Source: a virus
Direction: 5' to 3' (one strand)
Virus genome (UHGV): UHGV-0392283
DNA: 37,163 bases
Shown: one piece after another, positions 1-23,061 of the stretch
How the letters are laid out: each line of letters begins with the position of its first letter
How positions within the stretch are numbered: position 1 is the stretch's first letter
Notes under the pieces: generated by a model
Database searches by the model: none
What the model was told of the DNA's origin: nothing
What the model saw: only the letters and a program-made list of their open reading frames with translations
Position numbers and translations under genes: made by a program

Positions 1-664
1 TTATTTTTTCTTTTTCATTTTCACTTTCTATTAAAAGCATTTCTATCTCTTTTAAAATTTCATCTTCTCTTGTCATTGTAATATTGTTTTCTAGATATTC
101 TTTATTTAACGCTGCAATTTTTTCTCCAATATATAAATATCTCTCTTTTATAGAATAAAAAATATATAATTCCTCATATATATCTATATCTTTCCAATTT
201 TTAATTATATTCATTAATCCTGGGAATTTTTTATCAAGCCTATCCCTCTTTATTAATTTTTTTTGTTGTCTTAATATATCCTCTATATCTTTATCTTCAT
301 ATATTCCAAAATGTTTATTACAATCTCTTCCTATATCAATTTTTTCTCCAGTAATCTTATTGTGAATTGTACATACAAATTTCAATGCATGGTTACATAT
401 ATAACATACCTTATTGTCTGACTCTTCATAATTTTTAACATCTTCTTTTATTGAGCCTGTCCATTCTCTAAATGCTTGACTTCTTACTGTTAAATACATA
501 TTTTCAAAAAACCTAGCATGTTCATCTGAAAGATCTTTCAAATCTTCTAAATGTATATCTGGATGATTTTCAATTACATCTATTAATATTGGATAATCTT
601 TAGTTACATTACAAAGCTTTAATAATCTTAAATCTTTTTCATGAATAGCTTTTCCCAAAAGCAT
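1..664 (-). CDS. Hypothetical Cys-rich protein, 3' end runs off the window start. Start is ATG at 664 or in-frame TTG at 658.
   Basis: Manual translation gives an open frame from 664 to position 1 (MLLGKAIHEKDLRLLKLCNVTKDYPILIDV...CYICNHALKFVCTIHNKITGEKIDIGRDCNKHFG...). GGAG RBS at 667-670. Absent from the ORF track, probably because it touches the edge. Confidence 0.45.
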   Translation of the reverse strand, partial: MLLGKAIHEKDLRLLKLCNVTKDYPILIDVIENHPDIHLEDLKDLSDEHARFFENMYLTVRSQAFREWTGSIKEDVKNYEESDNKVCYICNHALKFVCTIHNKITGEKIDIGRDCNKHFGIYEDKDIEDILRQQKKLIKRDRLDKKFPGLMNIIKNWKDIDIYEELYIFYSIKERYLYIGEKIAALNKEYLENNITMTREDEILKEIEMLLIESENEKEKI

Positions 665-800
665 CACTCCTTTAATATTTATATATTAAAATTATACCAT
701 AGTTAAAATTTATTATCTTAATATCTAAGATTTATATATACACTTAGGTATAAAGTTACTATCCTTATAAAGACTGTTTGTAATAGTCATACCTTGATCG

Positions 801-1199
801 TTAAAAATTATTGTTTGTTAAATCATTTAAACTTACTTCTTCTGTGTCATCTTCTAATTTTAATTCTAAATCTGGTACTTCTCCTAAATCATGATTATGA
901 TTTATTTTTGAATTAATATCATCAATTTTCTTTAATGTTTTTTCTAAAGAATCTGATATACCATTTTGCAATTCTTCTAGCAATTGGATAATCTCTTTGA
1001 AGTTTGAATTATTTCTATATTTATCATTTAACTCAATAAATATTTGATATATTCTTAAATTAGTAGATATAGATTTTTTCACAAAACTACTAACGCTTAT
1101 ATTTAATCCTTTAGCAACTTTACTTACTAATTCTTTTTCTTCTTTAGTACACCTAAATCTTATTTCTTCTGTTTTTTTCTCATAATTGTTTTCAAACAT
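801..1199 (-). CDS. MobC-like ribbon-helix-helix DNA-binding protein (mobilisation accessory or regulator)
   Basis: N-terminal IRFRCTKEEKELVSKVAKGLNISVSSFVKKS resembles the MobC/RHH motif (R.R.T.EE...L...A...G.S.S...R). No relaxase gene is visible in the window. Confidence 0.5.
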   Translation of the reverse strand: MFENNYEKKTEEIRFRCTKEEKELVSKVAKGLNISVSSFVKKSISTNLRIYQIFIELNDKYRNNSNFKEIIQLLEELQNGISDSLEKTLKKIDDINSKINHNHDLGEVPDLELKLEDDTEEVSLNDLTNNNF

Positions 1200-1242
1200 T
1201 TTTACTTTCTCCTAAAATTCTCATAAACCATATTTTTACATT

Positions 1243-1266
1243 ATGTAGTTACAATTTGTAGTTACA
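1243..1266. promoter_or_regulatory. Tandem TGTAGTTACA direct repeat (two copies, 14-bp period) upstream of the RHH gene. Candidate operator or oriT-proximal site.
   Basis: atgTAGTTACAattTGTAGTTACAgta. Each copy is itself TGTA-N2-TACA dyad-like. RHH proteins typically bind tandem repeats. Confidence 0.3.
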
Positions 1267-1419
1267 GTATTCTCTCTCACTTACATTTATTTTATTATAA
1301 AATGCTGAACTATATAAAGCATGTTTTAAATCGCCAGAGATTAGTAGTTAAAATTTAATTTTATTACTTTTTACTTTACTTTTATTATTATTTCAATCAT
1401 CATTTTACAAATGTAATTT

Positions 1420-1743
1420 CTAATATTTATTAGTTTTTAAATTTATATATCCTATAAAGCTTAATAACATGCTTGGTATAAGAAATACTATTAATATAAA
1501 CATCGGGAATAATCCAGCAAGTAAATAAAAAATAATCGCTATTAATACAAAATTATATTTATTTTTAAAACATCCAATTAAATTAAATATTAATGCAAAA
1601 ATTACTAATATTATATGTGGAATAAAAAAATTTACTATAAGCATATCTATAGGTGGCTTTAATATAAATATTATTAATACTATTAAGTATACAATGTTTA
1701 AAATAGATGCTATTAAGATCTCTTTTGCTTTTTTTATCTCCAT
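1420..1743 (-). CDS. Small polytopic membrane protein
   Basis: 107 aa, almost entirely hydrophobic helices (ILIASILNIVYLIVLIIFILKPP...). Confidence 0.45.
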   Translation of the reverse strand: MEIKKAKEILIASILNIVYLIVLIIFILKPPIDMLIVNFFIPHIILVIFALIFNLIGCFKNKYNFVLIAIIFYLLAGLFPMFILIVFLIPSMLLSFIGYINLKTNKY

Positions 1744-1750
1744 TATATAT

Positions 1751-2593
1751 TTACTGCTCCCATCCTAATAATTGTTTTTCTAATTCATTCATATCTTGAT
1801 CTCTTTGTGTAAAGTTTGCATGATTATTTATTTTTTTATTATCTATGTTAATATTAACTTCCTTAGTCTTGTCCATATCATTTAAAGTTGCAAGAAGATA
1901 ACCTTTATAGTTTTTAATTTTAGTATCTGTAGCACTAGCAGCTAATATTGCTTTAGCTATTTTATTAAAATCATATATAGTTAGTAAATCCTTAATATCA
2001 TTTTTCTTTAATTTAAACTTATTATTCTGGCATATTTGTAAAAGCTTAATAACTTCTTTCTTTCTTTCTTCTTCCTCATCTTCGTTAGAAGAAGAAGATA
2101 TATTATTATTTAACTCAGTATTATTAATATTAGTATTATTAGAGTGTGATTTTAACACTTCTAGAGATGTGATTTTCACACTTCTAGAAATGTGATTTTC
2201 ACACTTCTGTTGGTATGACTGGTTTTCAAGCTCTTTTTCAATTTCAATTTGTAATAGGTAATGCCAAGAAGGTTTACCTTGACCTTTCTGTTGTGAAATT
2301 AATAAATCAAACTTTCTTAATTCTTTTAGTTGTTTTACGACCTTTTGGTTTCCCCAGCCTGTAAGATCCATTAAGTTTTCTATTGTTGCTATGAAATAAA
2401 CTCTATTACATTCATCTATCCAACCATTAGAGATTGATAGGCTATTTCTATCAGCTAGTATTGCATAAAGTAGTTTTGAATCAGAACTCATACTATAATA
2501 TTTGGAATTTTTATTCATGAATTGTTTTGGGACTTGAAAGAATTGTTTTCTATTTTCTGTTTCTAATGTGAAAAATCTATTATTTGATTGCAT
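1751..2593 (-). CDS. repA: Plasmid replication initiator, RepA_N family
   Basis: FFQVPKQFM...SDSKLLYAILADRNSLSISNGWIDECNRVYFIATIENLMDLTGWGNQKVVKQLKELRKFDLLISQQKGQGKPSWHY matches the RepA_N pattern of Firmicutes theta plasmids. GGAGG RBS 9 nt before ATG 2593. Iterons lie within the gene. Confidence 0.65.
   Translation of the reverse strand: MQSNNRFFTLETENRKQFFQVPKQFMNKNSKYYSMSSDSKLLYAILADRNSLSISNGWIDECNRVYFIATIENLMDLTGWGNQKVVKQLKELRKFDLLISQQKGQGKPSWHYLLQIEIEKELENQSYQQKCENHISRSVKITSLEVLKSHSNNTNINNTELNNNISSSSNEDEEEERKKEVIKLLQICQNNKFKLKKNDIKDLLTIYDFNKIAKAILAASATDTKIKNYKGYLLATLNDMDKTKEVNINIDNKKINNHANFTQRDQDMNELEKQLLGWEQ
2145..2213. repeat. Three tandem 23-bp iterons (TGTGATTTTcACACTTCTAGAaA) inside repA
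   Basis: Units at 2145-2167, 2168-2190 and 2191-2213. Units 1 and 2 differ at 3 of 23 positions (2154, 2155, 2166); the first 17 bp of unit 3 (2191-2207) are identical to unit 2 and its last 6 bp diverge. Each unit contains a GTGAttTTCAC dyad. Encodes the repetitive HISRSVKITSLEVLKSHS peptide. Confidence 0.55.
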
Positions 2594-2711
2594 AAAAATA
2601 TACCTCCTAATTTAGGAATAATTAAAAAACATTACACCTATCCTTAATTAGAAAGTATCTATATGATTAAAAAATAAAAATATTGTTGTTAAATATTTTA
2701 TTGCTTTTTTT

Positions 2712-2741
2712 TTGCATATGCATTATAATAAATCATATAAT
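2712..2741 (+). promoter_or_regulatory. Near-consensus sigma-A promoter (TTGCAT-18 bp-TATAAT) divergent from repA
   Basis: -35 TTGCAT at 2712-2717, -10 TATAAT at 2736-2741. A 12-bp perfect hairpin lies ~45 bp downstream. Confidence 0.35.
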
Positions 2742-2783
2742 ATTAATGCAAATATTTTAGAGATACTTTCTCTAGGTTGTGAG

Positions 2784-2829
2784 CCTATTAAATTCAAAGT
2801 TTGGTCGCCGAGAATTTAATAGGTTTTTT
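2784..2829 (+). terminator. 12-bp perfect inverted repeat (CCTATTAAATTC...GAATTTAATAGG) followed by a T6 run. Terminator-like, possibly ending a ~80-nt sRNA.
   Basis: Stem 2784-2795 pairs with 2811-2822; loop aaagtttggtcgccga; then TTTTTTG. Confidence 0.35.
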
Positions 2830-2904
2830 GCTATTTAATTAATCCGTTTTCAAAAATTTGTTGTTTTCATTATACTATAATTAGTAAGATTTTGTCTACT
2901 AAAG

Positions 2905-2957
2905 TTATCCACAGTAGGATAAATTTTAGATAATAATGTAGAATTTGTTGTGGATAA
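2905..2957. promoter_or_regulatory. Two consensus DnaA boxes in inverted orientation (TTATCCACA at 2905-2913, TGTGGATAA at 2949-2957). Candidate oriV element.
   Basis: Exact 9-mer matches to the DnaA box consensus, in the AT-rich region between repA and the par locus. Confidence 0.4.
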
Positions 2958-3004
2958 GTCTATTTGAAAGGAAGGTTTTAAGAATCTTCCTTTTTTTATA
3001 TTCA

Positions 3005-3190
3005 CTACAATTGAAATTATAACACTTTAACATTGAGATTACAATGTTATTTTATCTGACCATAACTCAATAAAGAAATATATTGAAAATTCAATGTTTT
3101 AATGTTGAAAAAACAATTTATAAATGTTATAATTAGTATATAACGAAGTTTAAATTGAAATTACAATGTTATTATATTGAAATATAAATA
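3005..3190. repeat. parC-like centromere repeat array upstream of parM
   Basis: Multiple copies of ATTGAAAtT and ACAATGTTAT with inverted AACATTG partners (3011-3054, 3082-3110, 3122-3130, 3154-3185), immediately 5' of the actin-like ATPase gene. Confidence 0.5.
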
Positions 3191-3204
3191 AAGGAGATGT
3201 TTTT

Positions 3205-4113
3205 ATGGCACAAATAATAGGATTAGACATAGGTAGGGGTTACGTAAAGGGATATTCAGAAGTAAATGGATTAACTAAGGAATGCATGTTTAAATCAATT
3301 ATTGGAGAAGGTAGAGAATTAAATTTTAAGGATTATGAAAATCCAATAATGATTAATTATGAAGGTGAAGATTGGTTTGTAGGACTTTTAGCAGAAGAAG
3401 AAAGTCAAACTCCTATAAGAAATAGTAAAGATAGTAAAACTACTACTACAGCTCAGACATTATTAGCTGCTGCACTAAGTCAATTAGCAGTTGAAGAAGA
3501 AGTTAAGATCTTTCTAGGAGTTCCTTACAAATCATTTAGAAAATCAGTTAGGGAAGATGTAATAGCAACATACAAAGGTAAATCAATTAAAGTTAAAGAT
3601 AGGATAAATGGTGGAATTAAAGAAGTAAAGATATCTGATATAAATATTCTTAGAGAAGGTGATGCTGCTTTATATTGGCAAATAAAAGGGAAAAACTGTA
3701 ATGAGAAACCAGTTGGACTTGTTTCTATAGGTTTTAGAACTACTGAAATGTCTTATTTTGATAAGGGATTAAAATTTAATGATAAAAAATCTGATACAAT
3801 AGAATTCGGAAATAGATCAGTAATGAATAATGTTAAAGATAAATTACTTAATATGGACATAATAAAAGATATAAATGAAATAGATACTAGTAATGATTAT
3901 GATGATATGAAGAAAAAAGCTTATAAAATAGCATCTGAAAACATTGAGCAACAAATAGAAGATAAATGGGTTAATTTATCTGAGATGGATATATATATAG
4001 CAGGTGGTACAGCATTAAATATGAGTTTTGATAATAATTTTAAAGTTATTGAGGATGCTCAAATGGCTACAGCTAAAGGATTATGGTTAGTTGGAAATGT
4101 AGCTTTTAAGTAG
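3205..4113 (+). CDS. parM: Actin-like plasmid segregation ATPase (ParM/Alp family)
   Basis: N-terminal IIGLDIGRGYVKGY phosphate-1-like motif. ~300 aa. Followed by a small RHH gene and preceded by the repeat array. RBS AAAGGAG. Confidence 0.65.
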   Translation: MAQIIGLDIGRGYVKGYSEVNGLTKECMFKSIIGEGRELNFKDYENPIMINYEGEDWFVGLLAEEESQTPIRNSKDSKTTTTAQTLLAAALSQLAVEEEVKIFLGVPYKSFRKSVREDVIATYKGKSIKVKDRINGGIKEVKISDINILREGDAALYWQIKGKNCNEKPVGLVSIGFRTTEMSYFDKGLKFNDKKSDTIEFGNRSVMNNVKDKLLNMDIIKDINEIDTSNDYDDMKKKAYKIASENIEQQIEDKWVNLSEMDIYIAGGTALNMSFDNNFKVIEDAQMATAKGLWLVGNVAFK

Positions 4114-4124
4114 GAGTGATATAA

Positions 4125-4418
4125 ATGAAAAAAAGCAGAACTTTTAGTTTAGAAGAAGATGTTTTAGAAAAGATAGAAGAATATCAAAAGTCTAAAAACC
4201 TAAGTAGTGCAAGTGCTGCATTAGAAAGAATAATTTTAATAGAACTTGCTAAAAGAGATGATATAGAACAAATAACAGAGAAGATGAAAGAGTTATTAAA
4301 GAATGTTAAAGCTACTGAAATAACTGAGGAAATTGTTTTAGATAAAAATGAAGATAATAATATAAACCCTGACATAGATAGCTCTATAATGAATTCATTT
4401 GCTAATATGCCAGATTAG
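4125..4418 (+). CDS. parR: ParR-like ribbon-helix-helix centromere-binding adaptor
   Basis: 97 aa. N-terminal RTFSLEEDVLEKIEEYQKSKNLSSASAALERIIL has RHH character. Lies immediately downstream of parM. Confidence 0.5.
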   Translation: MKKSRTFSLEEDVLEKIEEYQKSKNLSSASAALERIILIELAKRDDIEQITEKMKELLKNVKATEITEEIVLDKNEDNNINPDIDSSIMNSFANMPD

Positions 4419-4454
4419 TAATTCTAGTAATAGTAGTATTACTTTAAAAATATT

Positions 4455-4703
4455 ATGTTTAAAGGAGAATTTATGAGTAAGATTTTTAAAAATGAAAATA
4501 AAAGATATGAACTTGATGGTACTGTTCTTTCAAGTGGAGATCCAGTATTATTAAACTTAGGAACTGAAGATGAACCACAATGGGTTCGAGGAAGAATAGA
4601 GCATGATGGAGATGATTATTACTTCTTAGCTAGAAGTGAAAAACATATTAGTTTAACAGATGGTGATGAAGTTAAAATCATTGAAGTAGAAACTTGCTGG
4701 TAA
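4455..4703 (+). CDS. Small conserved hypothetical protein (possibly a DUF5348-like fold)
   Basis: 82 aa, YELDGTVLSSGDPV...WVRGRIEHDGDDYYF. RBS AAAGGAG. Confidence 0.45.
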   Translation: MFKGEFMSKIFKNENKRYELDGTVLSSGDPVLLNLGTEDEPQWVRGRIEHDGDDYYFLARSEKHISLTDGDEVKIIEVETCW

Positions 4704-4799
4704 TTAATTTAAAGGCTAGGCTTAATGCTTAGTCTTTTTATTGCTTTATAGTGGAAATTATTGTAAAGTAATACTAGGTGATACTTGTAATTAAGGGGT

Positions 4800-5255
4800 G
4801 TGAGTAATGTGAATAATGTGGACAAGTCTTTAGTTGAACAAATTAATAATTCTCTTGTACTTGAGGGAAAGAGTATTAATCAAATAGCAAAGATGTTAAA
4901 AGTAAAAAGAAGTGAAATTTTTGATATTATGAAGCAAAATGGATTTACATATGATAAAGAACAAGGCTTCTTTGTAAAGATTAATGAGGAATCCTTAATT
5001 AAAAGAATAGAAAAAATTGAGAAAAAACAAAAAGAACAAGAAGAAATAATACTAGAATTACTTAGTAATACTAAGCAAAAAAATGAGTTGAAAATTGATA
5101 ATGATATTTTAAATGGAAAAATTATAGGACGTAGTTTTAAACTTTATGAAAATACATCAAAAAAGTTTACTGAGTTTTGCAAAAATCATCCTGAGTTAAA
5201 AATGCAAGAAATTATTACAGTTGCTTTGGAGAAATATATGGAAGATAATAAATAA
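4800..5255 (+). CDS. Putative DNA-binding protein (N-terminal HTH, C-terminal RHH-like). True start may be GTG at 4809 or 4818.
   Basis: KSINQIAKMLKVKRSEIFDIMKQNGF is HTH-like. C-terminal RSFKLYENTSKKFTEF...IITVALEKYM is RHH-like. Confidence 0.4.
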   Translation: MSNVNNVDKSLVEQINNSLVLEGKSINQIAKMLKVKRSEIFDIMKQNGFTYDKEQGFFVKINEESLIKRIEKIEKKQKEQEEIILELLSNTKQKNELKIDNDILNGKIIGRSFKLYENTSKKFTEFCKNHPELKMQEIITVALEKYMEDNK

Positions 5256-5329
5256 ATTAAATCTTTAGCATTAAATAGATAATTAATATATAATTTTAAT
5301 TATAAATAAAAAGAAAAGAGTTGATACAT

Positions 5330-6004
5330 ATGAAAAAGAAATTAATAGCTAGTTTAATAATAGGAACTTTTCTAATTTCTGGTTTAGCTTTTATAGGATG
5401 TAATAAACCTGATAGCTCAACAGCTCAAACTAATACTGAATCAGATAGTAATTCAAAAAAAGATTCAACAACAGAAGATAATAAAATAGATAGTGATCAA
5501 AATAAACAGGAGTCTTCTAAAGATTCAAATAAAGAAAATAGTTCGTCATCAGAAACATCTAAAAAGGATAATGAAAATGCGGAGACTTCTAAAGATTTAA
5601 AAAAAGCAAATGATTCTGCTATCTCAAAAGAAAAATCTAATAAAGAAGATAATTCTTCTAAAAAAACAGAGTCAACTTCAAATGATGAAAATAAAACTAA
5701 TAAAAATTCAAATAGTGATTCTGAAGAAAAAAATTTAAAATATGAATATGAAGAAGCAGATAAACAATTAAATGAACTTTGGGGTCAAATAGTAAGTTAT
5801 GGTGCAGATTATCCAGATTTAATTAAAAGTCAAAAAAAATGGATAAAATATAAAGATAGTAAAGATTTGGCTACAAAAACAAAATTAACACAAGAGAGAA
5901 TAACAACATTACAAAAATGGTTTGCTTATCAGATGAGGATACAAGGCGAGAAGGGGTATCAATTTGCTCAAACTCATAAATGTCCAAGCTTAGATTGGGA
6001 ATAA
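5330..6004 (+). CDS. Lipoprotein with a Ser/Asp/Lys-rich linker and a C-terminal DUF1311 (LprI-like) domain
   Basis: Signal peptide plus lipobox (LISGLAFIGC). C-terminal ADKQLNELWGQIVS...QKKWIKYKDSKDL fits the DUF1311 motif. ATG 5330 is preferred over the track's TTG 5321. Confidence 0.5.
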   Translation: MKKKLIASLIIGTFLISGLAFIGCNKPDSSTAQTNTESDSNSKKDSTTEDNKIDSDQNKQESSKDSNKENSSSSETSKKDNENAETSKDLKKANDSAISKEKSNKEDNSSKKTESTSNDENKTNKNSNSDSEEKNLKYEYEEADKQLNELWGQIVSYGADYPDLIKSQKKWIKYKDSKDLATKTKLTQERITTLQKWFAYQMRIQGEKGYQFAQTHKCPSLDWE

Positions 6005-6120
6005 AGTATATATAATTTATATATTTAGATTTTATTGGAAAATATGTTTAAATTTACAGAATATGTCTATAATTTAAATGACATTTATAGAAAATTTCCT
6101 TATATATTTTTTAAAGTTTA

Positions 6121-6150
6121 AGCTACACAATTTAAGTGTAGCTCTTTTTT
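6121..6150. terminator. Bidirectional rho-independent terminator (AGCTACAC aatttaa GTGTAGCT followed by T7)
   Basis: 8-bp perfect stem followed by a T-run on the plus strand and preceded by an A-run. Sits between convergent ORFs. Confidence 0.55.
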
Positions 6151-6154
6151 TATT

Positions 6155-6319
6155 TTATAATCTTTTATATAAATCAAAATTTTCATCAATTTCTTTATCT
6201 ATCTCTTTATCTGTAAATTTTCTAGTTTTATCTAATTCTCTTTGAATTTGAAAGTTATATTTGTAACCATACTTTTTTATGAATTCTAATACATCATCTA
6301 AGCATATTTCTTTATTCAT
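6155..6319 (-). CDS. Small hypothetical ORF (54 aa)
   Basis: Manual translation MNKEICLDDVLEFIKKYGYKYNFQIQRELDKTRKFTDKEIDKEIDENFDLYKRL*. Weak RBS. Below the ORF-track size cut-off. Confidence 0.25.
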   Translation of the reverse strand: MNKEICLDDVLEFIKKYGYKYNFQIQRELDKTRKFTDKEIDKEIDENFDLYKRL

Positions 6320-6417
6320 AATATTATTTTAATATATAAATTCACAAAATATACAAAAAAAGTTAATATGTGATATAATCAAATTGTTAATATTATATTA
6401 AAAAAGGAGTATTAAAA

Positions 6418-7317
6418 ATGAATAAAGGAATATTAAAAGTAATAGGAATCATTTTATTAGTAGCTGGTATATCTTTAACTGTAATATCATCTGTAACTCT
6501 ATATAACAATAGAGAGCTGAAATACGAATTAAAAGATAATTTAGAAAATACATTAGAAGATAACTTTAATGCTGCTACTCATAATTTTATTGAAAGAGAT
6601 GAAAGTAAATATGATGATGCTAAAAATATGTTAGGAATGGGAGTAGGTTCTTCTATTCTTGGAATAATATTATTAGCTTTTAGTAAAAAAAGAGTGAATA
6701 TATCAGAAAACGAGAGTGAAGAAATTGAATACATAGATGATAATTTAATTACTAGCAATGAAATTGCAGATATATTAAATAAATCAAAAAAAATGTTAGA
6801 TTTAGATATAATAAATAAAAATGATTTTGAAAATAAAAAAAATGAAATAAAGCTAATGCTAAGTAATAAATCAATTATTTCAACACCAGAAGAATTTGTT
6901 TTAGAATTAAATGACTTATTAGAAGATGGAATATTTGATAATACTGAGTTAAAGAAAGTAATAATATTATTAAAGAATAACAAAGCAAAATTAGTTAAAA
7001 AACCAATAAATAAAATAAAAAAGAAAACTTTATTTTATGAAATAGAAAAGAAAATTGCTTTTACTAATTTTGGGTGTAAAATAAGAAGAAAATATGAGAA
7101 ATATGATTATAAAGATAGTGCATTATTAAGTTTGTTATCTGAACATACACAACTTATATTGATACCATTAATTTTATTAGTAATAATAGATTTTGCACAA
7201 AGAACAGTATTACCAACATCTAAAATCTTTTTTGTTTTAGTAAATTTAATATTAATATTAATTTATTTATTTTTAGAAAGTAAAAAAATATTTATTTTAA
7301 ATGATTATTCCGAATAA
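6418..7317 (+). CDS. Membrane protein with two SHOCT-like motifs
   Basis: N- and C-terminal transmembrane helices. Repeated DIINKNDFENKKNEIKLML and LLEDGIFDNTELKKVIILL segments. RBS AAAGGAG. Confidence 0.45.
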   Translation: MNKGILKVIGIILLVAGISLTVISSVTLYNNRELKYELKDNLENTLEDNFNAATHNFIERDESKYDDAKNMLGMGVGSSILGIILLAFSKKRVNISENESEEIEYIDDNLITSNEIADILNKSKKMLDLDIINKNDFENKKNEIKLMLSNKSIISTPEEFVLELNDLLEDGIFDNTELKKVIILLKNNKAKLVKKPINKIKKKTLFYEIEKKIAFTNFGCKIRRKYEKYDYKDSALLSLLSEHTQLILIPLILLVIIDFAQRTVLPTSKIFFVLVNLILILIYLFLESKKIFILNDYSE

Positions 7318-7384
7318 ATTTGCTAATTTGATTTATTTAATAATATTACTTGGGATTAAGATTTCCACGCAAAGGCAAAAAAAT

Positions 7385-7408
7385 AGGTTAGGATTTTATT
7401 CCTAACCT
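7385..7408 (-). terminator. Rho-independent terminator abutting the tape-measure stop codon
   Basis: AGGTTAGG / CCTAACCT 8-bp stem with loop attttatt, followed on the minus strand by a U-run (atttttttgcc). Confidence 0.5.
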
Positions 7409-16441: not shown

Positions 16442-17639
16442 CTCCTTGTGCTTTTAATAACGTTATTTTACTTAAATCATCTAGTTTATAATAACCAGAT
16501 GGAACTAAAACACTATCACCACCATCTATTAATGACATACCTAAAATTCTCTTAGCATTATTTATGCTATAAGCACCATTTTGTAGATACTTACAAATTA
16601 TTTCAGCTTGTGTTTTGGCATCTGTCCTTAACATTACAGATTGATTAAATCTACATTTAAATCCATTTTCTCTATCTTTAGAACTTAGATATTTCCAGTC
16701 TAATTCTTGTTCAATTTGCTGGAATTTAATTAATAAAGTATCAGCTAAAAATCCTAAGTTTTGCATTTCCATATTATTATTATTGGAATCGCTTAGGTCA
16801 TTAATTTGTGCTGGACTTAATCCAAAACAGTTAGCAATTTCTCTTCTACTTAACTTCCTAAGTTGCTCAAATTGGGCATCTGCAAGAGATAAATTTAAAC
16901 TAGATATACTGTAACCAGCTGGAACAGTAAATGTTCTACCATTAGAAGAATATAACTTATCAAACTTTTCCTGAGTCTCTTTAAGTTTCTTGTTATCTTT
17001 AATATCACTTGTTAATTGCACAAGAATTTTATTAGTTAGTCCATTATCAAAGAGTTTATTTAAATATTCCGAGCTTTTAATATTAGTATTAATTATATTT
17101 GTTAATAAAGATCTATTTGATTTAGTTTTTAAACCATCGAAACTTATTCCAGATTTATAAATACATAAATCTTCTTCTTTTACATCAAAGTTACTTCCAC
17201 AAACTGTAATATTATATAATGTTGCATTTTTCTTTAATGTTTTTATTAAACCCAGATTATCTATTAATATATCTTCTATTTTAGCTGGATATAAATCCAT
17301 AGTTTTTCTATCTATATATAATCCGCTTATACCATAGTGTTCTCCTAATGCTATTAAAGTCTTAATACAATCAACTGCATTCATATAAGGATTTGGTCTA
17401 AGTCTTAATTTTTCATGCAATTTATGCTTATAAGCTTCTAATTCACCTTTTTCAGTATCCTGTTTTAGAATTATAGGACATTTAGCAACACTCTCACTAA
17501 TATATTTAATACATTTAAAATATGTACTTTCTTTTAGTGCATTATCTTCAGTTTCAAAACCATTTTTAAGTAATTCTCCAAAAGTATATTTTTGTAAAGT
17601 TTCTTCTGTACTTCTTTTTTCTAATCTATCCCAATACAT
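16425..17639 (-). CDS. Portal protein (HK97 family)
   Basis: 404 aa, downstream of the large terminase. RBS AAAGGGGG. The ATG overlaps the stop of an upstream small ORF (TAATG). Confidence 0.65.
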   Translation of the reverse strand: MYWDRLEKRSTEETLQKYTFGELLKNGFETEDNALKESTYFKCIKYISESVAKCPIILKQDTEKGELEAYKHKLHEKLRLRPNPYMNAVDCIKTLIALGEHYGISGLYIDRKTMDLYPAKIEDILIDNLGLIKTLKKNATLYNITVCGSNFDVKEEDLCIYKSGISFDGLKTKSNRSLLTNIINTNIKSSEYLNKLFDNGLTNKILVQLTSDIKDNKKLKETQEKFDKLYSSNGRTFTVPAGYSISSLNLSLADAQFEQLRKLSRREIANCFGLSPAQINDLSDSNNNNMEMQNLGFLADTLLIKFQQIEQELDWKYLSSKDRENGFKCRFNQSVMLRTDAKTQAEIICKYLQNGAYSINNAKRILGMSLIDGGDSVLVPSGYYKLDDLSKITLLKAQGGVKSE

Positions 17640-17830
17640 TACTTACTACCCCCTTTCTGAATAAAATAACTTTCTACAAATAAGCCTAAAGCTAGTAAGT
17701 AAAAAGCTATATATTTATTTAATGTAAAAGTAGTTGTAAAGAATATTAGAAAGGATATTTTTACTAATAAATCAGATACAAAAGTTGCATCTTTTAATTT
17801 CTTTTTAATAAAATTCAGTAACTTTTTAAT
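17639..17830 (-). CDS. Small two-helix membrane protein ORF with no canonical start (AGGAGG followed by ATTATTATT), translationally coupled to the portal gene
   Basis: Open frame (I)IKKLLNFIKKKLKDATFVSDLLVKISFLIFFTTTFTLNKYIAFYLLALGLFVESYFIQKGGSK*. The stop is TAA inside TAATG at the portal start. A strong RBS lies at 17838-17843. No ATG, GTG or TTG in frame. Confidence 0.3.
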   Translation of the reverse strand: MKKLLNFIKKKLKDATFVSDLLVKISFLIFFTTTFTLNKYIAFYLLALGLFVESYFIQKGGSK

Positions 17831-17843
17831 AATAATCCCTCCT

Positions 17844-19559
17844 TTACCAATCCATTTTTTCTAATGAAGCAAATGGATCATAGTGTTCAATTTCATTATC
17901 TTCTATAGCCAATCCTAAACCCATTAGCATAGCTATTATTCCATCGATTTTAAACCTAGATCTCTTTTTACTATATTTACAATCAAGTTGTTCATTATAA
18001 ACAGCAATACAATTACTAGCCATAAAATCAAATAAACTATTTTTAGCAATTACAAGCCTATTATCTATAAGTAAATTTTCAAAGTCTTTTATGAAAACAT
18101 TCATAGTAACTGTTCCTTGTCCTAAAGGTGCAATATTCCATTCATCCTCTAATACATTCATAATTGTTGGTGTACCATATCTATCAAATCCAAGTTTTTC
18201 AAAATCATATTCATTGCTTAAATTTTTTATGTAATCTAACACACTATTAAATCTTATATAGCGTCCTTTTGTAGCTATTAATTCACCATTTTTAATCCAT
18301 GTAGAATAAGGATTTTTATCTCTTTCTTCTCTTTCCATTACAGTATCCTTTGCTGTAAATAGATGCGGGAATATATAATATTTATCATCTTCTTCTCTGT
18401 AAAATACTTGGACAAATCCAGTGATATCCTTTTGAGATGATAAATCTAAACCACACCAACATTTCTCACCTTTGAAGTCTTCTAGTTTTATGTCTTGTAT
18501 GCACTGTTCCCACAATTCCATGTTAATTGCATTTTTAATATGGTCTGTTGCAACATGTTGATTTAAAAACATTCTTCTAAATATATTTTCTTGTAAAGGC
18601 ATCAAAGATACTCTATTACAAAGGTTAACTATATCTTCTACATTTCTAAATAAACCAAGTGCTGGATTAGCCTTAAACCATTGTCTTACATCATCAATCT
18701 CACAATCTTTATCAGCTTCATATATTTTATAGTAAAAAGATTCATCTACACCTTTTCCTTCTTCTATATTTTTAGCTGTTGTATATAATTGCATTTCCAA
18801 ATTAAAAGGATCTTCACCAGAACTTGCAGTTGTTAAAGTAATTGCTAATGGTTCTCTCCATTGACCTGTACCAGTCTTTAATTTCCCATATATTGCATCA
18901 CTTTTATATTCATGAATTTCATCACAAGCAAAGCTATAAACTGAATAAGAGTCAGCTCCACCACCATCATTGCTTAAAACTATTAGTTTATTACCGTTAT
19001 CTTTTCTTATTATTTCTTTTCTTGAATCTGTAATTTTACATTTTTTTCTTAGGGCTTTATTGCTATTAACAAAACACTTAAAAGTATTATATAATTCACT
19101 TGCTTGCTTAGTTGTATTACCAGTTATAATAAATAAAGCTCCAAATATCTCTTTTTGCATAAAGAATATATAACTCATAATAATTCCAACTAAAAAAGAT
19201 TTAGAGTTTTTTCGCCCAACATTTATATGAGCTTCTCTAAATCTTCTCAAATTATCTTTTCTTCTTTTAACACATAAAATTTCAACTATTATTTCAAATT
19301 GAAATCTTAAAATGGTAAATTTCCTAGAAGTTCCTTTATCATTTTTTAATAAACTTATATATTTATAAATTTTTATACTTTCTTTTTCATCAAAATAATA
19401 TTTATCATCGTTCCATTTTTCTTTAAGTTCTTCATTGATTTTATCAAGTTGAAAAGTTTGTTTTATTTTATTTTCTTCAAGTAATTTATCTAATAATTCT
19501 TCATTAATCATTAAATAACTGCTCCATTTCTCTATCTTCTTCAGTATAGAATTCACCAT
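17844..19559 (-). CDS. terL: Terminase large subunit. True start is probably MINEELL at ~19511.
   Basis: 571 aa. ATPase plus nuclease architecture (GADSYSVYSFACDEIHEY...). The N-terminal 16 codons overlap terS. Confidence 0.75.
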   Translation of the reverse strand: MVNSILKKIEKWSSYLMINEELLDKLLEENKIKQTFQLDKINEELKEKWNDDKYYFDEKESIKIYKYISLLKNDKGTSRKFTILRFQFEIIVEILCVKRRKDNLRRFREAHINVGRKNSKSFLVGIIMSYIFFMQKEIFGALFIITGNTTKQASELYNTFKCFVNSNKALRKKCKITDSRKEIIRKDNGNKLIVLSNDGGGADSYSVYSFACDEIHEYKSDAIYGKLKTGTGQWREPLAITLTTASSGEDPFNLEMQLYTTAKNIEEGKGVDESFYYKIYEADKDCEIDDVRQWFKANPALGLFRNVEDIVNLCNRVSLMPLQENIFRRMFLNQHVATDHIKNAINMELWEQCIQDIKLEDFKGEKCWCGLDLSSQKDITGFVQVFYREEDDKYYIFPHLFTAKDTVMEREERDKNPYSTWIKNGELIATKGRYIRFNSVLDYIKNLSNEYDFEKLGFDRYGTPTIMNVLEDEWNIAPLGQGTVTMNVFIKDFENLLIDNRLVIAKNSLFDFMASNCIAVYNEQLDCKYSKKRSRFKIDGIIAMLMGLGLAIEDNEIEHYDPFASLEKMDW

Positions 19560-19902
19560 TATCTTTAGCCTTAGATTTATTCATTCTTGCTCTTGAAGCT
19601 GGAGTTAATCCTAATTCTTTCATCCAGTTTCTCATTTCCTGTTCAGCATTCTTTTTAAGTTGACAGTAAGGATGCTGCTGAGGATATCCATTAGGACTTT
19701 TTATTATGTAACCTGATTCCTCCAATAAATTAGAAAATTTTAGAACATCTGAATAACAAGAACAATATCTTTCTAATGCTTTAGTATCTATACTTTCAAA
19801 GTCTTTTTTCTGTTCTTCTAAAATTTTTAATATTCTTTTCCACTCTTTTTTTCCTTCTTTATCTAAAAGTGAAGGGCATTTTATTTTAGTCAAATTTATC
19901 AT
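19504..19902 (-). CDS. terS: Terminase small subunit (P27 family)
   Basis: 132 aa. ...GYPQQHPYCQLKKNAEQEMRNWMKELGLTPASRARM matches the P27-family C-terminus. RBS AAAGGAGG. Confidence 0.6.
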   Translation of the reverse strand: MINLTKIKCPSLLDKEGKKEWKRILKILEEQKKDFESIDTKALERYCSCYSDVLKFSNLLEESGYIIKSPNGYPQQHPYCQLKKNAEQEMRNWMKELGLTPASRARMNKSKAKDNGEFYTEEDREMEQLFND

Positions 19903-19910
19903 CCTCCTTT

Positions 19911-19994
19911 CAGCACCCCCCCTACCCTAAAAAAACACAAAATAATTTACGGAAGGTTGAGACCCGCGACTTTTTAATTTTTCTAACAAACTTT
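19911..19994. other. GC-rich island between the HNH and terS genes. Candidate cos or packaging site.
   Basis: cagcacccccctaccc and acggaaggttgagacccgcgac stand out in an AT-rich context, at the HNH-terS junction where cos sites of HNH-dependent cos phages lie. Confidence 0.25.
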
Positions 19995-20468
19995 TTAAAC
20001 TCCCCCACCTAACCTGAACTCATCCATGAACCTAGCCTTCAAATCAAACAATAATTCTTGCATCTTAGCCTTATTTCCATTATTGTATTCTCTATGCACT
20101 ATTCTATGATTCCTTTCTGTTAAGTAAATAAGATTATCTTTATTTAATCTCTTATCAAAATCATCACTTAATTCAATGATATGATGAACTCTTTCTCCTT
20201 GAGTAATTCTATTTAACTTATAGTAATCAATTACATCTATTGCTAAGGTATCTATTATTGCACCTTGCTTACCCAACTCCCATTCTTTACTTGAATAGAA
20301 GTTCTGATATTTCTTTTGCTCTTTATCTTGTCTCCTACGATTAGCATACTCTCTATATCTTTTCTTTTCTTCTTCATCAACTTTCTTCTGATGATAATTG
20401 CAATACTTTATTCCATCACTTAGGATACGAGTACAACCATGCCAACTACACTGTTTTAATATTGCCAT
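19995..20468 (-). CDS. Phage HNH endonuclease (terminase-associated)
   Basis: 157 aa. CSWHGC...C..H zinc site and ERVHHIIELSDDFDKRLNKDNLIYLTERNHRIVH HNH motif. Lies immediately upstream of terS. RBS GGAGGTG. Confidence 0.7.
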   Translation of the reverse strand: MAILKQCSWHGCTRILSDGIKYCNYHQKKVDEEEKKRYREYANRRRQDKEQKKYQNFYSSKEWELGKQGAIIDTLAIDVIDYYKLNRITQGERVHHIIELSDDFDKRLNKDNLIYLTERNHRIVHREYNNGNKAKMQELLFDLKARFMDEFRLGGGV

Positions 20469-20554: not shown

Positions 20555-20725
20555 ATGGCAAAGAACACAGGAAAAGGTAGTAGAAAAGGTGCGGTAAAAA
20601 GTAGAACCCAAACATATAACCCTAAAACAGATACTTGGGTAAAAAGAGATAGTTCAACTGGCAGATTTATTGATGGTAAAACCTCAAGTAGTACCCCATT
20701 TAAAGGAGTAACTAAAGAGAACTAA
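20555..20725 (+). CDS. Small basic hypothetical protein (56 aa)
   Basis: Manual translation MAKNTGKGSRKGAVKSRTQTYNPKTDTWVKRDSSTGRFIDGKTSSSTPFKGVTKEN*. RBS GAAAGGA. Flanked by a 9-bp inverted repeat GGGATAGTT / AACTATCCC (20527-20535, 20741-20749). Confidence 0.3.
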   Translation: MAKNTGKGSRKGAVKSRTQTYNPKTDTWVKRDSSTGRFIDGKTSSSTPFKGVTKEN

Positions 20726-20830
20726 TCTTAGTTTAATATCAACTATCCCTTAATTTAGGGTATAAAAAAAGAAGCTATTAATTAGCTTCTTAATTCTATA
20801 TTTTCCTTTTCTTTATAGTTTTTTATATTA

Positions 20831-20874
20831 TTTTTTTGCATAATAAAAAGCTACAAAACAATATGCAGCTCTTC
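20831..20874 (-). terminator. Repeated ~44-bp terminator module (TTTTTTGCATAAtAAAAAGCTACAaAAcAaTATGCAGCTCTTC), copy 1
   Basis: On the minus strand: AGCUGCA...UGUAGCU stem with one G-U pair, then a U-rich tail. ~85% identical to 34754-34798, with a partial copy at 25164-25183. Confidence 0.4.
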
Positions 20875-20879
20875 ATTTA

Positions 20880-21239
20880 TCATCTATCTTTTTCTTGGTT
20901 ACTTTCATCCATTTTCTTATCTAATTGATTTAAAAACTCGTTAAGTCTTTTATCAAATTCCTCTCTTTCTCTCCTATCCCTTTCTTCTCTTTTCTTATTT
21001 TCTTCATGTAACTGTTTTCTTCCTTCTTCTGTTAAAACTGAAGGAATATTTGGGTATGGATCTACTAATTTATTTTTTTCTCGCTCTTCTCTAGATTTTT
21101 TAATCTTTGAGTTGACTCTAGACTGTCTAATTGCTACAACTATTAATAAAAATATCAACAATAATATCTGCATTGCTTTACCTTTTCTCCTTATCTTATT
21201 TGTTAAGATAATTATAACACTTTTACATAATTTTAACAA
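20880..21239 (-). CDS. Small membrane-anchored protein with a charged coiled-coil tail (start probably MQILLL at ~21173)
   Basis: Transmembrane helix ILLLIFLLIVVAI followed by a Lys/Glu/Arg-rich segment. Confidence 0.35.
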   Translation of the reverse strand: MLKLCKSVIIILTNKIRRKGKAMQILLLIFLLIVVAIRQSRVNSKIKKSREEREKNKLVDPYPNIPSVLTEEGRKQLHEENKKREERDRREREEFDKRLNEFLNQLDKKMDESNQEKDR

Positions 21240-21250
21240 TTTTATTAAAT

Positions 21251-21284
21251 AAAAAAGAACCTAGTTTGTCCACTAGGTTCATAT
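21251..21284 (-). terminator. Terminator hairpin GAACCTAG...CTAGGTTC (copy A of a duplicated module)
   Basis: 8-bp stem and 8-nt loop, followed by a U-run on the minus strand. Identical at 32 of 34 positions (mismatches at 21265 and 21270) to 22270-22303 in an ungapped alignment. Confidence 0.55.
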
Positions 21285-21299
21285 TTATATACTGTTTAT

Positions 21300-21908
21300 T
21301 TAAGTTCTTGTTGCTGCAACTTCTTCAAAGGCGACAGTTTTTAGATTTTTACCATGTTCAATTTTTGTTATCTTTCTATCTGTTATCTTTCTTCTAACTT
21401 GTTTTTTTACATAATAGTTTCCATGATGTACTAGGAATGTTTCTGGATAATAATAATTTGACGCTTTTGCCAAACATAAATGTATATATAATTTTTGCTT
21501 AACTAAATAAAATATCATATTAGATTTTATTAAAGTACCTTCTTCCCCATCATTTACTTTTAATTTCTTTTTGTTGAAAATAACAATTTTTTCATTATAA
21601 AGTAGGTCTTCAATTAAATAAAACCATTTCAATTTATCTTCAATCTTACTAAAATACACACTTTTAGATATTATTGAATAATCTAAATCCAAATTAGTTA
21701 GTTTTTTATAAATTAAAGATGCTGCAACCTTCTTTTCTGACAAATCTTTTAAAATTTCAATATCTTTTAATTTATGTAATCCAAGCAAATGTGGTAAATT
21801 TGATGGTATAATTTTAACTCTAAAATGATAATTATTATCTAATTTTAAATTGTATATTTTGCATTCTACATTTTTAAATGCTTTAACGCTTTTTTCTAAA
21901 ACATCCAT
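21300..21908 (-). CDS. Hypothetical protein (202 aa from M7). Possible nuclease (H..GLHK motif).
   Basis: GGAGT RBS 8 nt before the ATG at 21908. The track's upstream ATG at 21926 has no RBS. No recognisable family. Confidence 0.45.
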   Translation of the reverse strand: MDVLEKSVKAFKNVECKIYNLKLDNNYHFRVKIIPSNLPHLLGLHKLKDIEILKDLSEKKVAASLIYKKLTNLDLDYSIISKSVYFSKIEDKLKWFYLIEDLLYNEKIVIFNKKKLKVNDGEEGTLIKSNMIFYLVKQKLYIHLCLAKASNYYYPETFLVHHGNYYVKKQVRRKITDRKITKIEHGKNLKTVAFEEVAATRT

Positions 21909-21934
21909 TTTTATACTCCAAAACATAAATAAAG

Positions 21935-21963
21935 AGTGTCTTACTTAAAATAAATAAGACACT
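21935..21963 (-). terminator. Attenuator or terminator-like hairpin (AGTGTCTTA...TAAGACACT) plus U-tract immediately upstream of the 21908 RBS
   Basis: 9-bp perfect stem. On the minus strand it is followed by cuuuauuuauguuuugg and then the RBS and ATG. Confidence 0.4.
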
Positions 21964-22215
21964 TATAAACAAGTTATGAGCATTTTTTATGTTTCGAGTT
22001 TCCTCTAGCTATAAACAGGATCATGCACAACCATCCTACTATCTCCACACTCACCTTATAGCAAGGCTAATGCTTCTTAGATAAAGCCACCATTTCACTT
22101 ACCTTATTTAAGCCCCTGTAAGTTCAGAAGGGGACATGTGGTGACACACGTTAGTAAGTATTCTACACATACATACTACAAGTATTTTAAATAAACTGTA
22201 ATTATTTAAATTACA
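21964..22215 (-). ncRNA. Candidate ~250-nt structured leader or ncRNA. A GC-enriched ORF-free segment between a consensus promoter and the attenuator hairpin.
   Basis: No ORF on either strand. GC content is visibly higher than the flanks. Internal hairpin GCCCCTG...CAGGGGC, and AGGUGAG / GGAGAUA motifs. No tandem repeats. No confident riboswitch match by eye. Confidence 0.3.
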
Positions 22216-22220
22216 ACTTT

Positions 22221-22249
22221 ATTATAAACCCTTTTACAACTATTGTCAA
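22221..22249 (-). promoter_or_regulatory. Consensus sigma-A promoter on the minus strand (TTGACA-17 bp-TATAAT) driving the leader and the 21908 gene
   Basis: Minus strand reads TTGACAatagttgtaaaagggttTATAAT. -35 at 22244-22249 and -10 at 22221-22226. Confidence 0.45.
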
Positions 22250-22269
22250 ATAAATATTTTTCATATAAT

Positions 22270-22303
22270 AAAAAAGAACCTAGCTTGTACACTAGGTTCA
22301 TAT
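22270..22303 (-). terminator. Terminator hairpin GAACCTAG...CTAGGTTC (copy B), after toxN
   Basis: Near-identical to 21251-21284. Lies directly 3' of the toxN stop. Confidence 0.55.
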
Positions 22304-22306
22304 ATA

Positions 22307-22840
22307 TTATTTTTTAATATTTATTTGATTTGAAATTGCTGAAACTTCTTTTTTCTTACAATAATTATTATATGCTATTTCTAATTTTCTAAAATCACAG
22401 CAGTTTTTATAATTATAATCTTTTTCATTACAGCCCCATTTGTAAACTCTTTTTGCTAATTTTTTAATTGCCTCAGCGTTTTCTCTACACCAAGAAAGTT
22501 CTTTTCTAATCAAACTTATACTTTTAGTATTCCAATAATTATTTATAATAAATCTTTTCACAACAGTATCATTTACTGGTATCATAAAACATAATCTAAC
22601 CGAACCAACTACAACTAATTCTTCTGAGTATTTATCTCTAACTTTTATTAATAAATTTGTTTTTTGCTTTATAGGAAATGAAGATACCGGAGCAAAATAT
22701 TTAAATCCATTAATTTCTAAAATTATTCCAACATAAAACTTTGTATTTTTATATTCATAATCTGATACACTAGAATCTCCATAGGTTTTTAAATATTCTA
22801 AATATTTAGTATCAACCTCATAAAAATCTAATTTACTCAT
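22307..22840 (-). CDS. toxN: ToxN/AbiQ-family endoribonuclease toxin (type III toxin-antitoxin, abortive infection)
   Basis: MSKLDFYEVDTKYLEYLKTYGDSSVS...KNTKFYVGIILEINGFKYFAPVSSFPIKQ matches the ToxN/AbiQ N-terminal signature (FY.V...Y..YL...D..V...K...GI.LEI.G..Y.AP.SS). RBS AGAGG. An upstream terminator and repeats fit the type III architecture. Confidence 0.65.
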   Translation of the reverse strand: MSKLDFYEVDTKYLEYLKTYGDSSVSDYEYKNTKFYVGIILEINGFKYFAPVSSFPIKQKTNLLIKVRDKYSEELVVVGSVRLCFMIPVNDTVVKRFIINNYWNTKSISLIRKELSWCRENAEAIKKLAKRVYKWGCNEKDYNYKNCCDFRKLEIAYNNYCKKKEVSAISNQINIKK

Positions 22841-22864
22841 AATATACCTCTTAATATTAAAAAA

Positions 22865-22886
22865 AGAGATAGAAAAAACTATCTCT
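22865..22886 (-). terminator. Terminator hairpin (AGAGATAG aaaaaa CTATCTCT plus U-run) between the repeat region and toxN
   Basis: 8-bp perfect stem. On the minus strand it is followed by uuuuuuuaauauuaa and then the toxN RBS. Mirrors the attenuating terminator between toxI and toxN. Confidence 0.5.
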
Positions 22887-23030: not shown

Positions 23031-23061
23031 TCATTTACGTAAATAATTTGTCAACTCCAAA

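Follow-up and report, generated by a model that had tools for sequence, protein, structure and literature searches.

The UHGV virus genome UHGV-0392283, a stretch of 37,163 bp with about 25% G+C that is called the window here, is the complete circular genome of a Clostridium perfringens plasmid-prophage, an extrachromosomal replicon. It joins a plasmid replication and partition backbone to a phage head and tail-shaft module that stops at the tape-measure gene (stop at 7409), a feature overlooked by the original prediction, which had called a phage-plasmid from the sequence alone. Without tail-tip and lysis genes, the element presumably cannot complete an infection cycle alone, and independent spread as a virus is probably beyond it. 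The virion genes that it retains are intact and appear to be under purifying selection, which suggests that packaged particles are still made. This favours, with about even confidence, a non-autonomous plasmid-prophage whose head and tail-shaft module still functions and which depends on another phage to supply the tail tip and lysis.

The circle is seen directly in the assemblies. A single 455-amino-acid (aa) open reading frame (ORF) crosses the end-to-start junction on the minus strand (36457..37163 joined to 1..685), and the last and first bases of the window are adjacent in NZ_CP092482.1, NZ_CP075986.1 and NZ_CP134263.1. The ENA contig ERZ27296142:k141_17464 (37,304 bp) is 100% identical to the window and circularly permuted, spanning window positions 25378 through 37163 and then 1 through 25518. 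Its length is 37,163 bp plus a 141-bp terminal overlap, as expected when MEGAHIT assembles a circle at k=141. In another assembly, ERZ28627848 (37,205 bp), identity across the junction is likewise 100%. The junction ORF, which has no PHROGs match, falls into two parts in the window.

36457..37163, minus strand: junction ORF, 5′ part, with the start of the 455-aa ORF
1..685, minus strand: junction ORF, 3′ part; a 454-aa gene is called here in the 100%-identical contig and in pCP149-92_1

All 84 of the 84 matching PLSDB records are C. perfringens plasmids, those listed being mostly 35-42 kb. Circularity was a check that the original prediction had asked for, and it had named att sites and an integrase just outside the window as the finding to fear. 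The latter is inapplicable, since a closed circle has no outside where an integrase could hide. Inside it, no tyrosine or large serine integrase was found either by Pfam in about 50 probable-gene ORFs (overlapping opposite-strand ORFs being left out) or by six-frame tblastn of the window with three integrases, as had been predicted. The extrachromosomal state is hence borne out by the closed circle together with a Rep/Par backbone that is contiguous with the head-tail module and has no integrase. No tRNA was found in a scan of the window, and Rfam at the gathering threshold gave no relevant RNA family in the whole of it.

Phage-plasmids as defined by Pfeifer et al. 2021 must encode lysis and the full virion (PMC7969092). 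By these measures, the window has an extrachromosomal replicon with plasmid replication and partition genes, and it has DNA packaging and head genes (HNH endonuclease, TerS, TerL, portal, protease, capsid, connectors and a cos-like site). It has neither a complete virion, as to tail tip and receptor binding, nor lysis genes. Thus, the phage-plasmid signature originally claimed stands for the Rep/Par plus head-tail architecture, the episome and the lack of integrase, and fails for a complete phage with tail tip and lysis.

The structural genes were called from Pfam or PHROGs profiles. They run on the minus strand from 20468 down to 7409 in the order of HNH endonuclease, cos-like site, TerS, TerL, portal, S78 protease, HK97-type capsid, connector, head closure, gp10-like protein, tail completion, tail tube, chaperone and tape measure. 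The terS, terL, portal, protease, capsid, connector, tube, chaperone and tape-measure genes previously placed at 7409-20468 all have profile matches.

19995-20468, minus strand: packaging-associated HNH endonuclease, 157 aa (phrog_144, E 1.9e-23; 64% identical to the PhiS63 HNH)
19958-19968, minus strand: cos-like site CGCGGGTCTCA, aligned to the PhiS63 cos overhang CGCAGTGTCTA, with conserved flanks
19504-19902, minus strand: TerS, P27 family
17844-19559, minus strand: TerL
16425-17639, minus strand: portal
15797-16441, minus strand: S78 prohead protease
14644-15747, minus strand: major capsid protein
13251-14591, minus strand: connectors (head-tail connector, head closure, gp10-like, tail completion)
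12613-13230, minus strand: tail tube
12256-12591, minus strand: tail chaperone
7409-11626, minus strand: tape measure, including an insert

The PhiS63 cos overhang CGCAGTGTCTA was mapped experimentally (PMC3442830). As a side observation, about 415 bp between the chaperone and the tape-measure start (11627-12255, minus strand) hold one 51-aa ORF only. The gap might extend the chaperone by a frameshift, or it might be some other unrecognised element.

No ORF of the window matches any Dit, Tal, receptor-binding protein, holin or endolysin family in the profile searches. Fifteen reference proteins of tail tip and lysis (Dit, Tal, BppU, fibre, holin and endolysin of PhiS63, phiSM101, pCP149-92_1 and a Paraclostridium phage-plasmid) gave nothing above noise in six-frame tblastn of the window. 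Beyond 7409, all that precedes the plus-strand accessory and par genes is a conserved 54-aa ORF and a convergent gene for a membrane protein.

6155-6319, minus strand: conserved 54-aa ORF (phrog_15170, E 4e-31), which closes the late operon in plasmid-borne members

The 54-aa ORF follows the tape measure or BppU in five of the five plasmid or viral relatives checked (L001, L003, L004, L005, L008; L numbers mark relatives here). The chromosomal copies are without it and carry other ORFs in its place.

The truncation is evidently not a private deletion, because the module has the same end point in plasmid, IMG/VR and chromosomal relatives. It ends there in NZ_CP075946.1, the circular NZ_CP120752.1, NZ_CP075995.1 and a 37.6-kb IMG/VR contig, and homology to the window ceases 38 bp past the tape-measure stop in nine chromosomal copies. 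Among the close relatives examined, every one that shares the module, plasmid or chromosomal, is without tail-tip and lysis genes. For the exact connector protein, the index lists 746 assembly blocks, the longest contig being 20-50 kb in 291 of them and >50 kb in 52. Sister plasmids with an identical ParM (L023, L025) carry a different structural module, tail tip included, which consists of Dit, BppU and a 998-aa Tal that bears lysozyme and M23 domains.

Thirteen structural genes were compared across the fetched copies, with 3-19 full-length copies per gene. Nearly every full-length copy is in frame and free of internal stops, as in the capsid (14/14), tail tube (16/16), tape-measure exon 2 (15/15), TerL (11/12) and HNH (17/19) genes. 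The ratio of nonsynonymous to synonymous polymorphism (pN/pS) is 0.06-0.35, except for TerS with 0.53 on 28 substitutions only, and the low values persist among pairs at least 98.5% identical. The backbone genes for ParM and an RNA polymerase give similar selection values, and the corresponding ratio of substitution rates (dN/dS) is 0.17 for the polymerase. The module is a mosaic, its TerL being 69% identical to one relative and 99% to another. Judged by these ratios, the retained structural genes are under purifying selection in plasmid and chromosomal copies alike. The intact frames and the low pN/pS argue against silent decay.

Also overlooked before was an insert that splits the tape-measure gene.

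10652-11626, minus strand: tape-measure exon 1, 325 aa (PhageMin_Tail, E 7e-61)
9653-10651, minus strand: intron-like insert, 999 nt, with boundaries from the alignment to uninterrupted relatives
9865-10521, minus strand: HNH endonuclease ORF in the insert, 218 aa (HNH domain, E 7e-06)
7409-9652, minus strand: tape-measure exon 2, C-terminal 747 aa (phrog_1533, E 2.6e-180)

The insert is intron-like and most probably a divergent group I intron, with splicing presumed. Its exact excision restores the frame, and the joined exons make an open 1072-aa protein reading ...STLFGKEAMSGW... at the junction. Exon 1 ends in U and the insert in G, as in group I introns, and a P1-like pairing of UGGU with GCCA is drawable at the 5′ junction. 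Relatives exist that are without the insert at this site, and others have different inserts at two further tape-measure sites, which brings the insertion sites to three or more.

Over its 3′ 230 nt, the insert has about 80% identity to sequences of a Mammaliicoccus/Staphylococcus phage, a Clostridioides phage and an uncultured virus. In a five-insert alignment of this part, 52 consensus pairs are found, 25 of them with compensatory changes, which supports a structured, covarying RNA core at the level of the consensus fold. An intron-like insert is also noted in L004 at about 34409-34703.

The tape measure is unusual at its C-terminus too. Its last ~45 residues (7409-7560; KNINIKTDLHIGTL...EELHTY) differ from the canonical end ...IPVSIAGEEIDRIVVPRVSNKLA..RR, which is common to phiSM101 and the Paraclostridium element, both with Dit next. 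The altered C-terminus correlates with the loss of the tail tip. A large protein search with the last 120 aa gave three matches, one of which leads to the complete Paraclostridium phage-plasmid. Because P0017, a 49%-identical metagenome fragment, has the window's version, the unusual end looks like a conserved native variant, not a random fusion, and an internal deletion is unlikely as its origin.

The replication and partition backbone lies in the first part of the window.

1751-2593, minus strand: RepA_N initiator, 280 aa (PF06970, E 1.5e-21; 76.5 bits against a cutoff of 30)
2140-2213: three tandem 23-bp iterons within repA (period 23, 3.0 copies, 93% matches)
2905-2913, plus strand, and 2949-2957, minus strand: DnaA boxes, a convergent perfect pair of TTATCCACA, 36 bp apart in the repA-parM spacer
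3009-3192: parC-like centromere repeat array of ATTGAAAnTnCAATGTT-type direct and inverted repeats, just upstream of parM
3205-4113, plus strand: ParM actin-like partition ATPase, 302 aa (ALP_N, E 3.5e-20)
4125-4418, plus strand: candidate ParR adaptor, 97 aa, right after parM and with a ribbon-helix-helix-like N-terminus
801-1199, minus strand: NikA-like ribbon-helix-helix protein, 132 aa (PF21983, E 3e-06; 27.7 bits against a cutoff of 27)
1420-1743, minus strand: strongly hydrophobic membrane protein, 107 aa (phrog_31229, E 3.9e-13), immediately downstream of repA
4455..6004, plus strand: accessory genes for a DUF5348 protein, a KilAC-like protein and an LprI-like lipoprotein
6418-7317, plus strand: multi-pass membrane protein, 299 aa, with several transmembrane segments

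The predicted RepA_N initiator with internal iterons is well founded, since the N-terminal domain scores above the Pfam cutoff and the repeats lie inside the rep coding sequence, as in RepA_N replicons. Its counterparts in relatives are annotated as 'replication initiator protein A'. The predicted DnaA boxes are also there as two perfect copies of TTATCCACA between repA and parM, the sole ones in the whole window, where about 0.4 are expected by our estimate from base composition. Boxes with at most one mismatch are at the chance level, 10 being found against 10.75 expected.

In the predicted ParM/ParR pair with a centromere array, ParM and the repeats are confirmed, and ParR stays a candidate by its position and its ribbon-helix-helix-like N-terminus. 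It has no family match in Pfam or NCBIfam, and its PHROGs matches are to unknown-function families only. The exact ParM protein is confined to contigs of at most 50 kb. What was taken for a MobC-like protein at 801-1199 matches the NikA-like family, at the borderline, and not MobC; a Pfam scan found no relaxase. Between repA and the DnaA boxes (2700-2835, plus strand), a promoter-like TTGCAT...TATAAT is followed by a hairpin and then a T-run, and this segment could encode a small RNA, perhaps antisense to the long repA leader.

The serine resolvase earlier assigned to 1-7317 had to be rejected. The ORF at 6418-7317 has transmembrane segments and no match to a recombinase or any other family in Pfam, PHROGs, NCBIfam or PADLOC, and the genuine recombinase is at 23062-23646. 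Apart from the 100%-identical contigs, this membrane-protein ORF was met again only in L027, a contig of 21.5 kb whose genes are arranged as in the window (matched by layout, not identity), and it is absent from the other relatives fetched earlier.

The remaining features are on the minus strand upstream of the packaging genes.

29748-33097, minus strand: early/regulatory region, with an HTH_36/DnaD-like protein (317 aa) and a cI-like helix-turn-helix repressor (228 aa)
26731-29433, minus strand: YonO-type single-subunit RNA polymerase, 900 aa (38.9% identity over 91% to SPbeta yonO, E 1e-144)
25209-26126, minus strand: GIY-YIG nuclease, 305 aa
23062-23646, minus strand: small serine recombinase of resolvase/invertase type, 194 aa (PF00239 E 1.6e-32, HTH_7; NCBIfam Mpi invertase family E 2e-22)
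21300-22840, minus strand: defence cassette of a PBECR4 nuclease-like protein and a ToxN/AbiQ toxin (PF18813; PF13958 E 1.3e-33; PADLOC AbiQ E 5.5e-32)

The YonO homologue was identified by tblastn against phages. It has full-length homology and a motif of the DxDGD type, DNDGD at residues 582-586. Sequence searches of the PDB with the 906-aa ORF (the longest-start form) and with a five-member profile gave no match, and an NCBIfam scan added nothing for Rep, the 299-aa ORF or the 900-aa ORF. Relatives have a 1021-aa version with 26% identity, in which DYDSD stands where this motif would be.

YonO is the single-subunit RNA polymerase that transcribes the SPbeta late genes. Analogy suggests that its homologue may transcribe late genes here too, because its position heads the long minus-strand gene train. 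Just upstream of its gene (29584-29701) are three 23-nt repeats TAAAACCACCTTTAGGGTGTCTA with an internal palindrome, plus a 20-nt repeat, and these may be an operator for the lytic switch.

The serine recombinase protein of the window is, like its ParM, confined to contigs of at most 50 kb. In pCP955-85 and pCPAAD1903_3, the recombinase slot holds a 189-aa tyrosine recombinase with a catalytic domain only (L001 21662-22231). Either slot recombinase could serve dimer resolution or a DNA switch. An invertible segment beside the serine recombinase was looked for and rejected, as no convincing inverted repeats flank it.

The ToxN/AbiQ toxin is an endoribonuclease of the type III toxin-antitoxin kind. 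Upstream of its gene (22841-23061, minus strand) lie a promoter-like site (TTGACA/TAATAT), degenerate short repeats and, just before the ribosome-binding site, a hairpin terminator. A type III antitoxin RNA is arranged in this way, but there is no clean tandem array here, and TRF reports none. Relatives vary in the slot of 20555-23646, a defence hotspot bounded by the small recombinase and a conserved 56-aa ORF: RnlA, Kiwa KwaAB or an M78 peptidase pair is found there (L013-L021, L035-L038). In pCP149-92_1, a SEFIR/TIR protein is beside PBECR4 just upstream of TerS, and no recombinase or 56-aa ORF is annotated there. The defence cassettes of the window end in a repeated 49-nt terminator (21240-21288, 22259-22307), and the ORF at 20880-21239 is a membrane protein by hydropathy.

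The same backbone is found integrated as well. Proteins identical to an 88-aa ORF and to the YonO homologue of the window occur in chromosomal contigs of 0.38-1.1 Mb, and a 338-aa tyrosine integrase replaces the NikA-like/Rep/Par block in these integrated sisters. The attachment locus lies between the phosphoenolpyruvate (PEP) carboxylase gene and pfl (L028, L031, L036, L043-L047), and a full prophage is flanked by a ~530-bp duplication of the 3′ end of the carboxylase gene plus the 5′ end of the integrase gene. At this site, many C. perfringens chromosomes have only a remnant of ~5.5 kb that opens with a 91-aa integrase fragment; the index lists 672 blocks for it. Because near-identical backbones occur with Rep/Par or with an integrase, the family evidently alternates between plasmid and integrated lifestyles by swapping one module. 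Switching between the two forms has been described for P1-like phage-plasmids (PMC10879196).

Taken together, these features would make up the following cycle in the helper-reliant reading. The region of RepA_N, iterons and DnaA boxes would be the origin, and ParM, the probable ParR and the repeats would partition the copies. The serine recombinase would resolve dimers, and the toxin cassette would add retention and defence. The cI-like repressor region would control the YonO-type RNA polymerase of the element, which in turn would transcribe the single long minus-strand late operon. The HNH-TerS-TerL set would then cut at the PhiS63-like cos site and fill the HK97-type head, while the connector, tube, chaperone and tape measure, restored by splicing of the intron-like insert, would build the tail shaft. 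A co-resident phage would supply the tail tip and lysis, which would make the element a helper-dependent, satellite-like phage-plasmid.

Several points weigh against the helper-reliant reading. We postulate the helper phage and infer the helper step. The insert has no match in Rfam (searched with E up to 1 for 9400-10800 and up to 0.1 for two relatives), so it cannot be filed as a curated group I intron, and its splicing is putative. For its C-terminal ~45 residues, the tape measure has no counterpart among those in the phage collection, and with such a non-canonical and unmatched C-terminus a simple docking onto a known tail tip is unsupported. The full-tip sister plasmids with the same or a related ParM (L003, L023, L025, L030) have no recognisable holin or endolysin, and the whole family may use an unrecognised lysis route or lack a canonical lysis cassette. 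Moreover, part of the low pN/pS may stem from selection that acted in donor phages before the segments were recombined in.

The helper-reliant reading can be carried further. This very common C. perfringens element might be a new kind of helper-dependent phage-plasmid, which makes its own heads, tubes and tape measure via its own YonO and takes only the tip, the receptor-binding device and lysis from the helper. The altered C-terminus of the tape measure would then be an adaptor for the tip. We offer this extended version only tentatively.

The main rival is a defective phage-plasmid with a plasmid-only life, whose tip and lysis genes were lost and whose virion genes are silent passengers. It would persist by Rep, ParMRC, the resolvase, AbiQ and its defence cargo. 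This account is possible, if somewhat doubtful. The missing genes agree with it and so does the non-canonical end of the tape measure, the P1-derived plasmids that lack lysis and tail genes are its precedent (PMC10879196), and the maintenance and defence cargo is strong and placed in a slot that is a hotspot among relatives. However, silent passengers should not keep 13 structural genes intact in nearly all copies, nor pN/pS as low as found here down to the most similar pairs. Likewise, the wide occurrence of the exact connector protein, the one module boundary across mosaic backbones in both plasmid and integrated forms, and the conservation of a dedicated RNA polymerase all speak for a module in use.

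A fully autonomous temperate phage-plasmid, with the tip, receptor-binding and lysis functions hidden in unrecognised hypothetical ORFs, is improbable. About 20 ORFs are without annotation, several of them for membrane proteins (1420-1743, 20880-21239, 6418-7317), and the lack of an annotated holin or endolysin in the full-tip sisters hints at a non-canonical lysis route. However, only the 54-aa ORF comes after the tape measure on its strand, and the large unknowns, the 455-aa junction ORF and the YonO homologue, are also in sisters with their own Dit, Tal and BppU. We know of no siphovirus without Dit and Tal, which also counts against autonomy.

An integrated prophage or a mis-assembled contig instead of an episome is very improbable: although related modules with the identical connector and YonO proteins are found in contigs of 0.38 to >1 Mb, some adjoining the 338-aa tyrosine integrase at the PEP carboxylase-pfl locus, the exact sequence closes on itself with the 141-bp overlap in independent 100%-identical permuted assemblies, Rep and Par occupy the place of the integrase, and the ParM and resolvase of the window are only on contigs of at most 50 kb.

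The virulence and defence traits of C. perfringens travel on plasmids, and the phage-like plasmids there are recognised but barely characterised. The present case suggests that gene-content screens can call a phage-plasmid an element without the parts for infection and lysis. With Rep/Par in some copies and an integrase in others, the same backbone illustrates in nature the switch between a plasmid and an integrated life. If the element is completed by a helper, it would be a new satellite form that steals the host-recognition tip only, with a bearing on host range and defence-gene flow in a gut pathogen. If it is defective, it would exemplify the decay of a phage-plasmid into a stable plasmid that carries defence genes.

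The element belongs to the recognised C. perfringens phage-like plasmids. Its class is not as under-annotated as the original prediction had it, since phiSM101 (2006) and 'phage-like plasmids' (Gulliver et al. 2023, PMC10210947) were already described in this species. Among its nearest known kin is phiSM101, the episomal prophage of C. perfringens SM101 with a circular genome of 38,092 bp and, like the window, no integrase. Their layouts are alike, with rep on one strand, the par and accessory genes on the other and one long late operon from HNH-TerS to the tail. For its tail part, the window is closest to phiSM101: the two tape measures share 69% identity across residues 2-1006, and the gp10, chaperone and tail-tube proteins are related. 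However, phiSM101 has other Rep and Par proteins, its head module is only 25-40% identical, and tblastn at E<=1e-5 finds no YonO in it. Its tape measure also has a different C-terminal end and is followed by ~11 kb that encode Dit and more tail proteins as well as a holin and the endolysin Psm, none of which the window has.

The head and packaging genes resemble those of PhiS63, an integrative, inducible cos siphovirus of 33.6 kb. From HNH to connector, the genes are collinear with 58-83% protein identity, and the cos regions are homologous. The tail modules are unrelated, in contrast, with the tape measures only 22% identical, and PhiS63 continues after its tape measure for ~10.5 kb with genes for Dit, BppU, a Tal of 1020 aa and a fibre, and for holin and endolysin, all absent from the window. 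It also has a large integrase targeting sigK (PMC3442830) and no Rep or Par. The Paraclostridium phage-plasmid is complete, with a tail-tip and lysis set equivalent to that of PhiS63, unlike the window. The YonO homologue is shared with SPbeta at the identity given above and with a DxDGD-type motif, but the host of YonO there is a 134-kb phage and here a 37-kb plasmid-prophage.

Phage-inducible chromosomal islands that form capsids (cf-PICIs) encode HNH, TerS, TerL, portal, protease, capsid and connectors of their own; they lack lysis genes and use helper-phage tails. They are much smaller, chromosomal with an integrase, and without a tail tube or tape measure. The window resembles them in having its own packaging and capsid genes and no lysis genes. 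It differs from them and other known satellites in being larger and in having tube and tape-measure genes, and helper dependence is something that we infer here.

Within the species, the pCN5383_8 group (46.8 kb; Gulliver et al. 2023, PMC10210947) shares the concept of rep plus phage-structural genes, a likeness by description only. Nearer are pCP955-85, pCPAAD1903_3 and NZ_CP120752.1, which share the truncated module at 89-94% nucleotide identity but have other replication modules of DnaD or HTH types. Among these, NZ_CP120752.1 has a resolvase and ToxN like the window, whereas pCP955-85 and pCPAAD1903_3 have the tyrosine recombinase instead. Finally, the P1-derived plasmids (PMC10879196) are phage-plasmid kin without lysis and most tail genes, with integrated derivatives too, as in the family of the window. 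They are of another phage lineage and host, and the loss in the window differs from theirs in having one sharp conserved boundary, with the remainder apparently kept under purifying selection.

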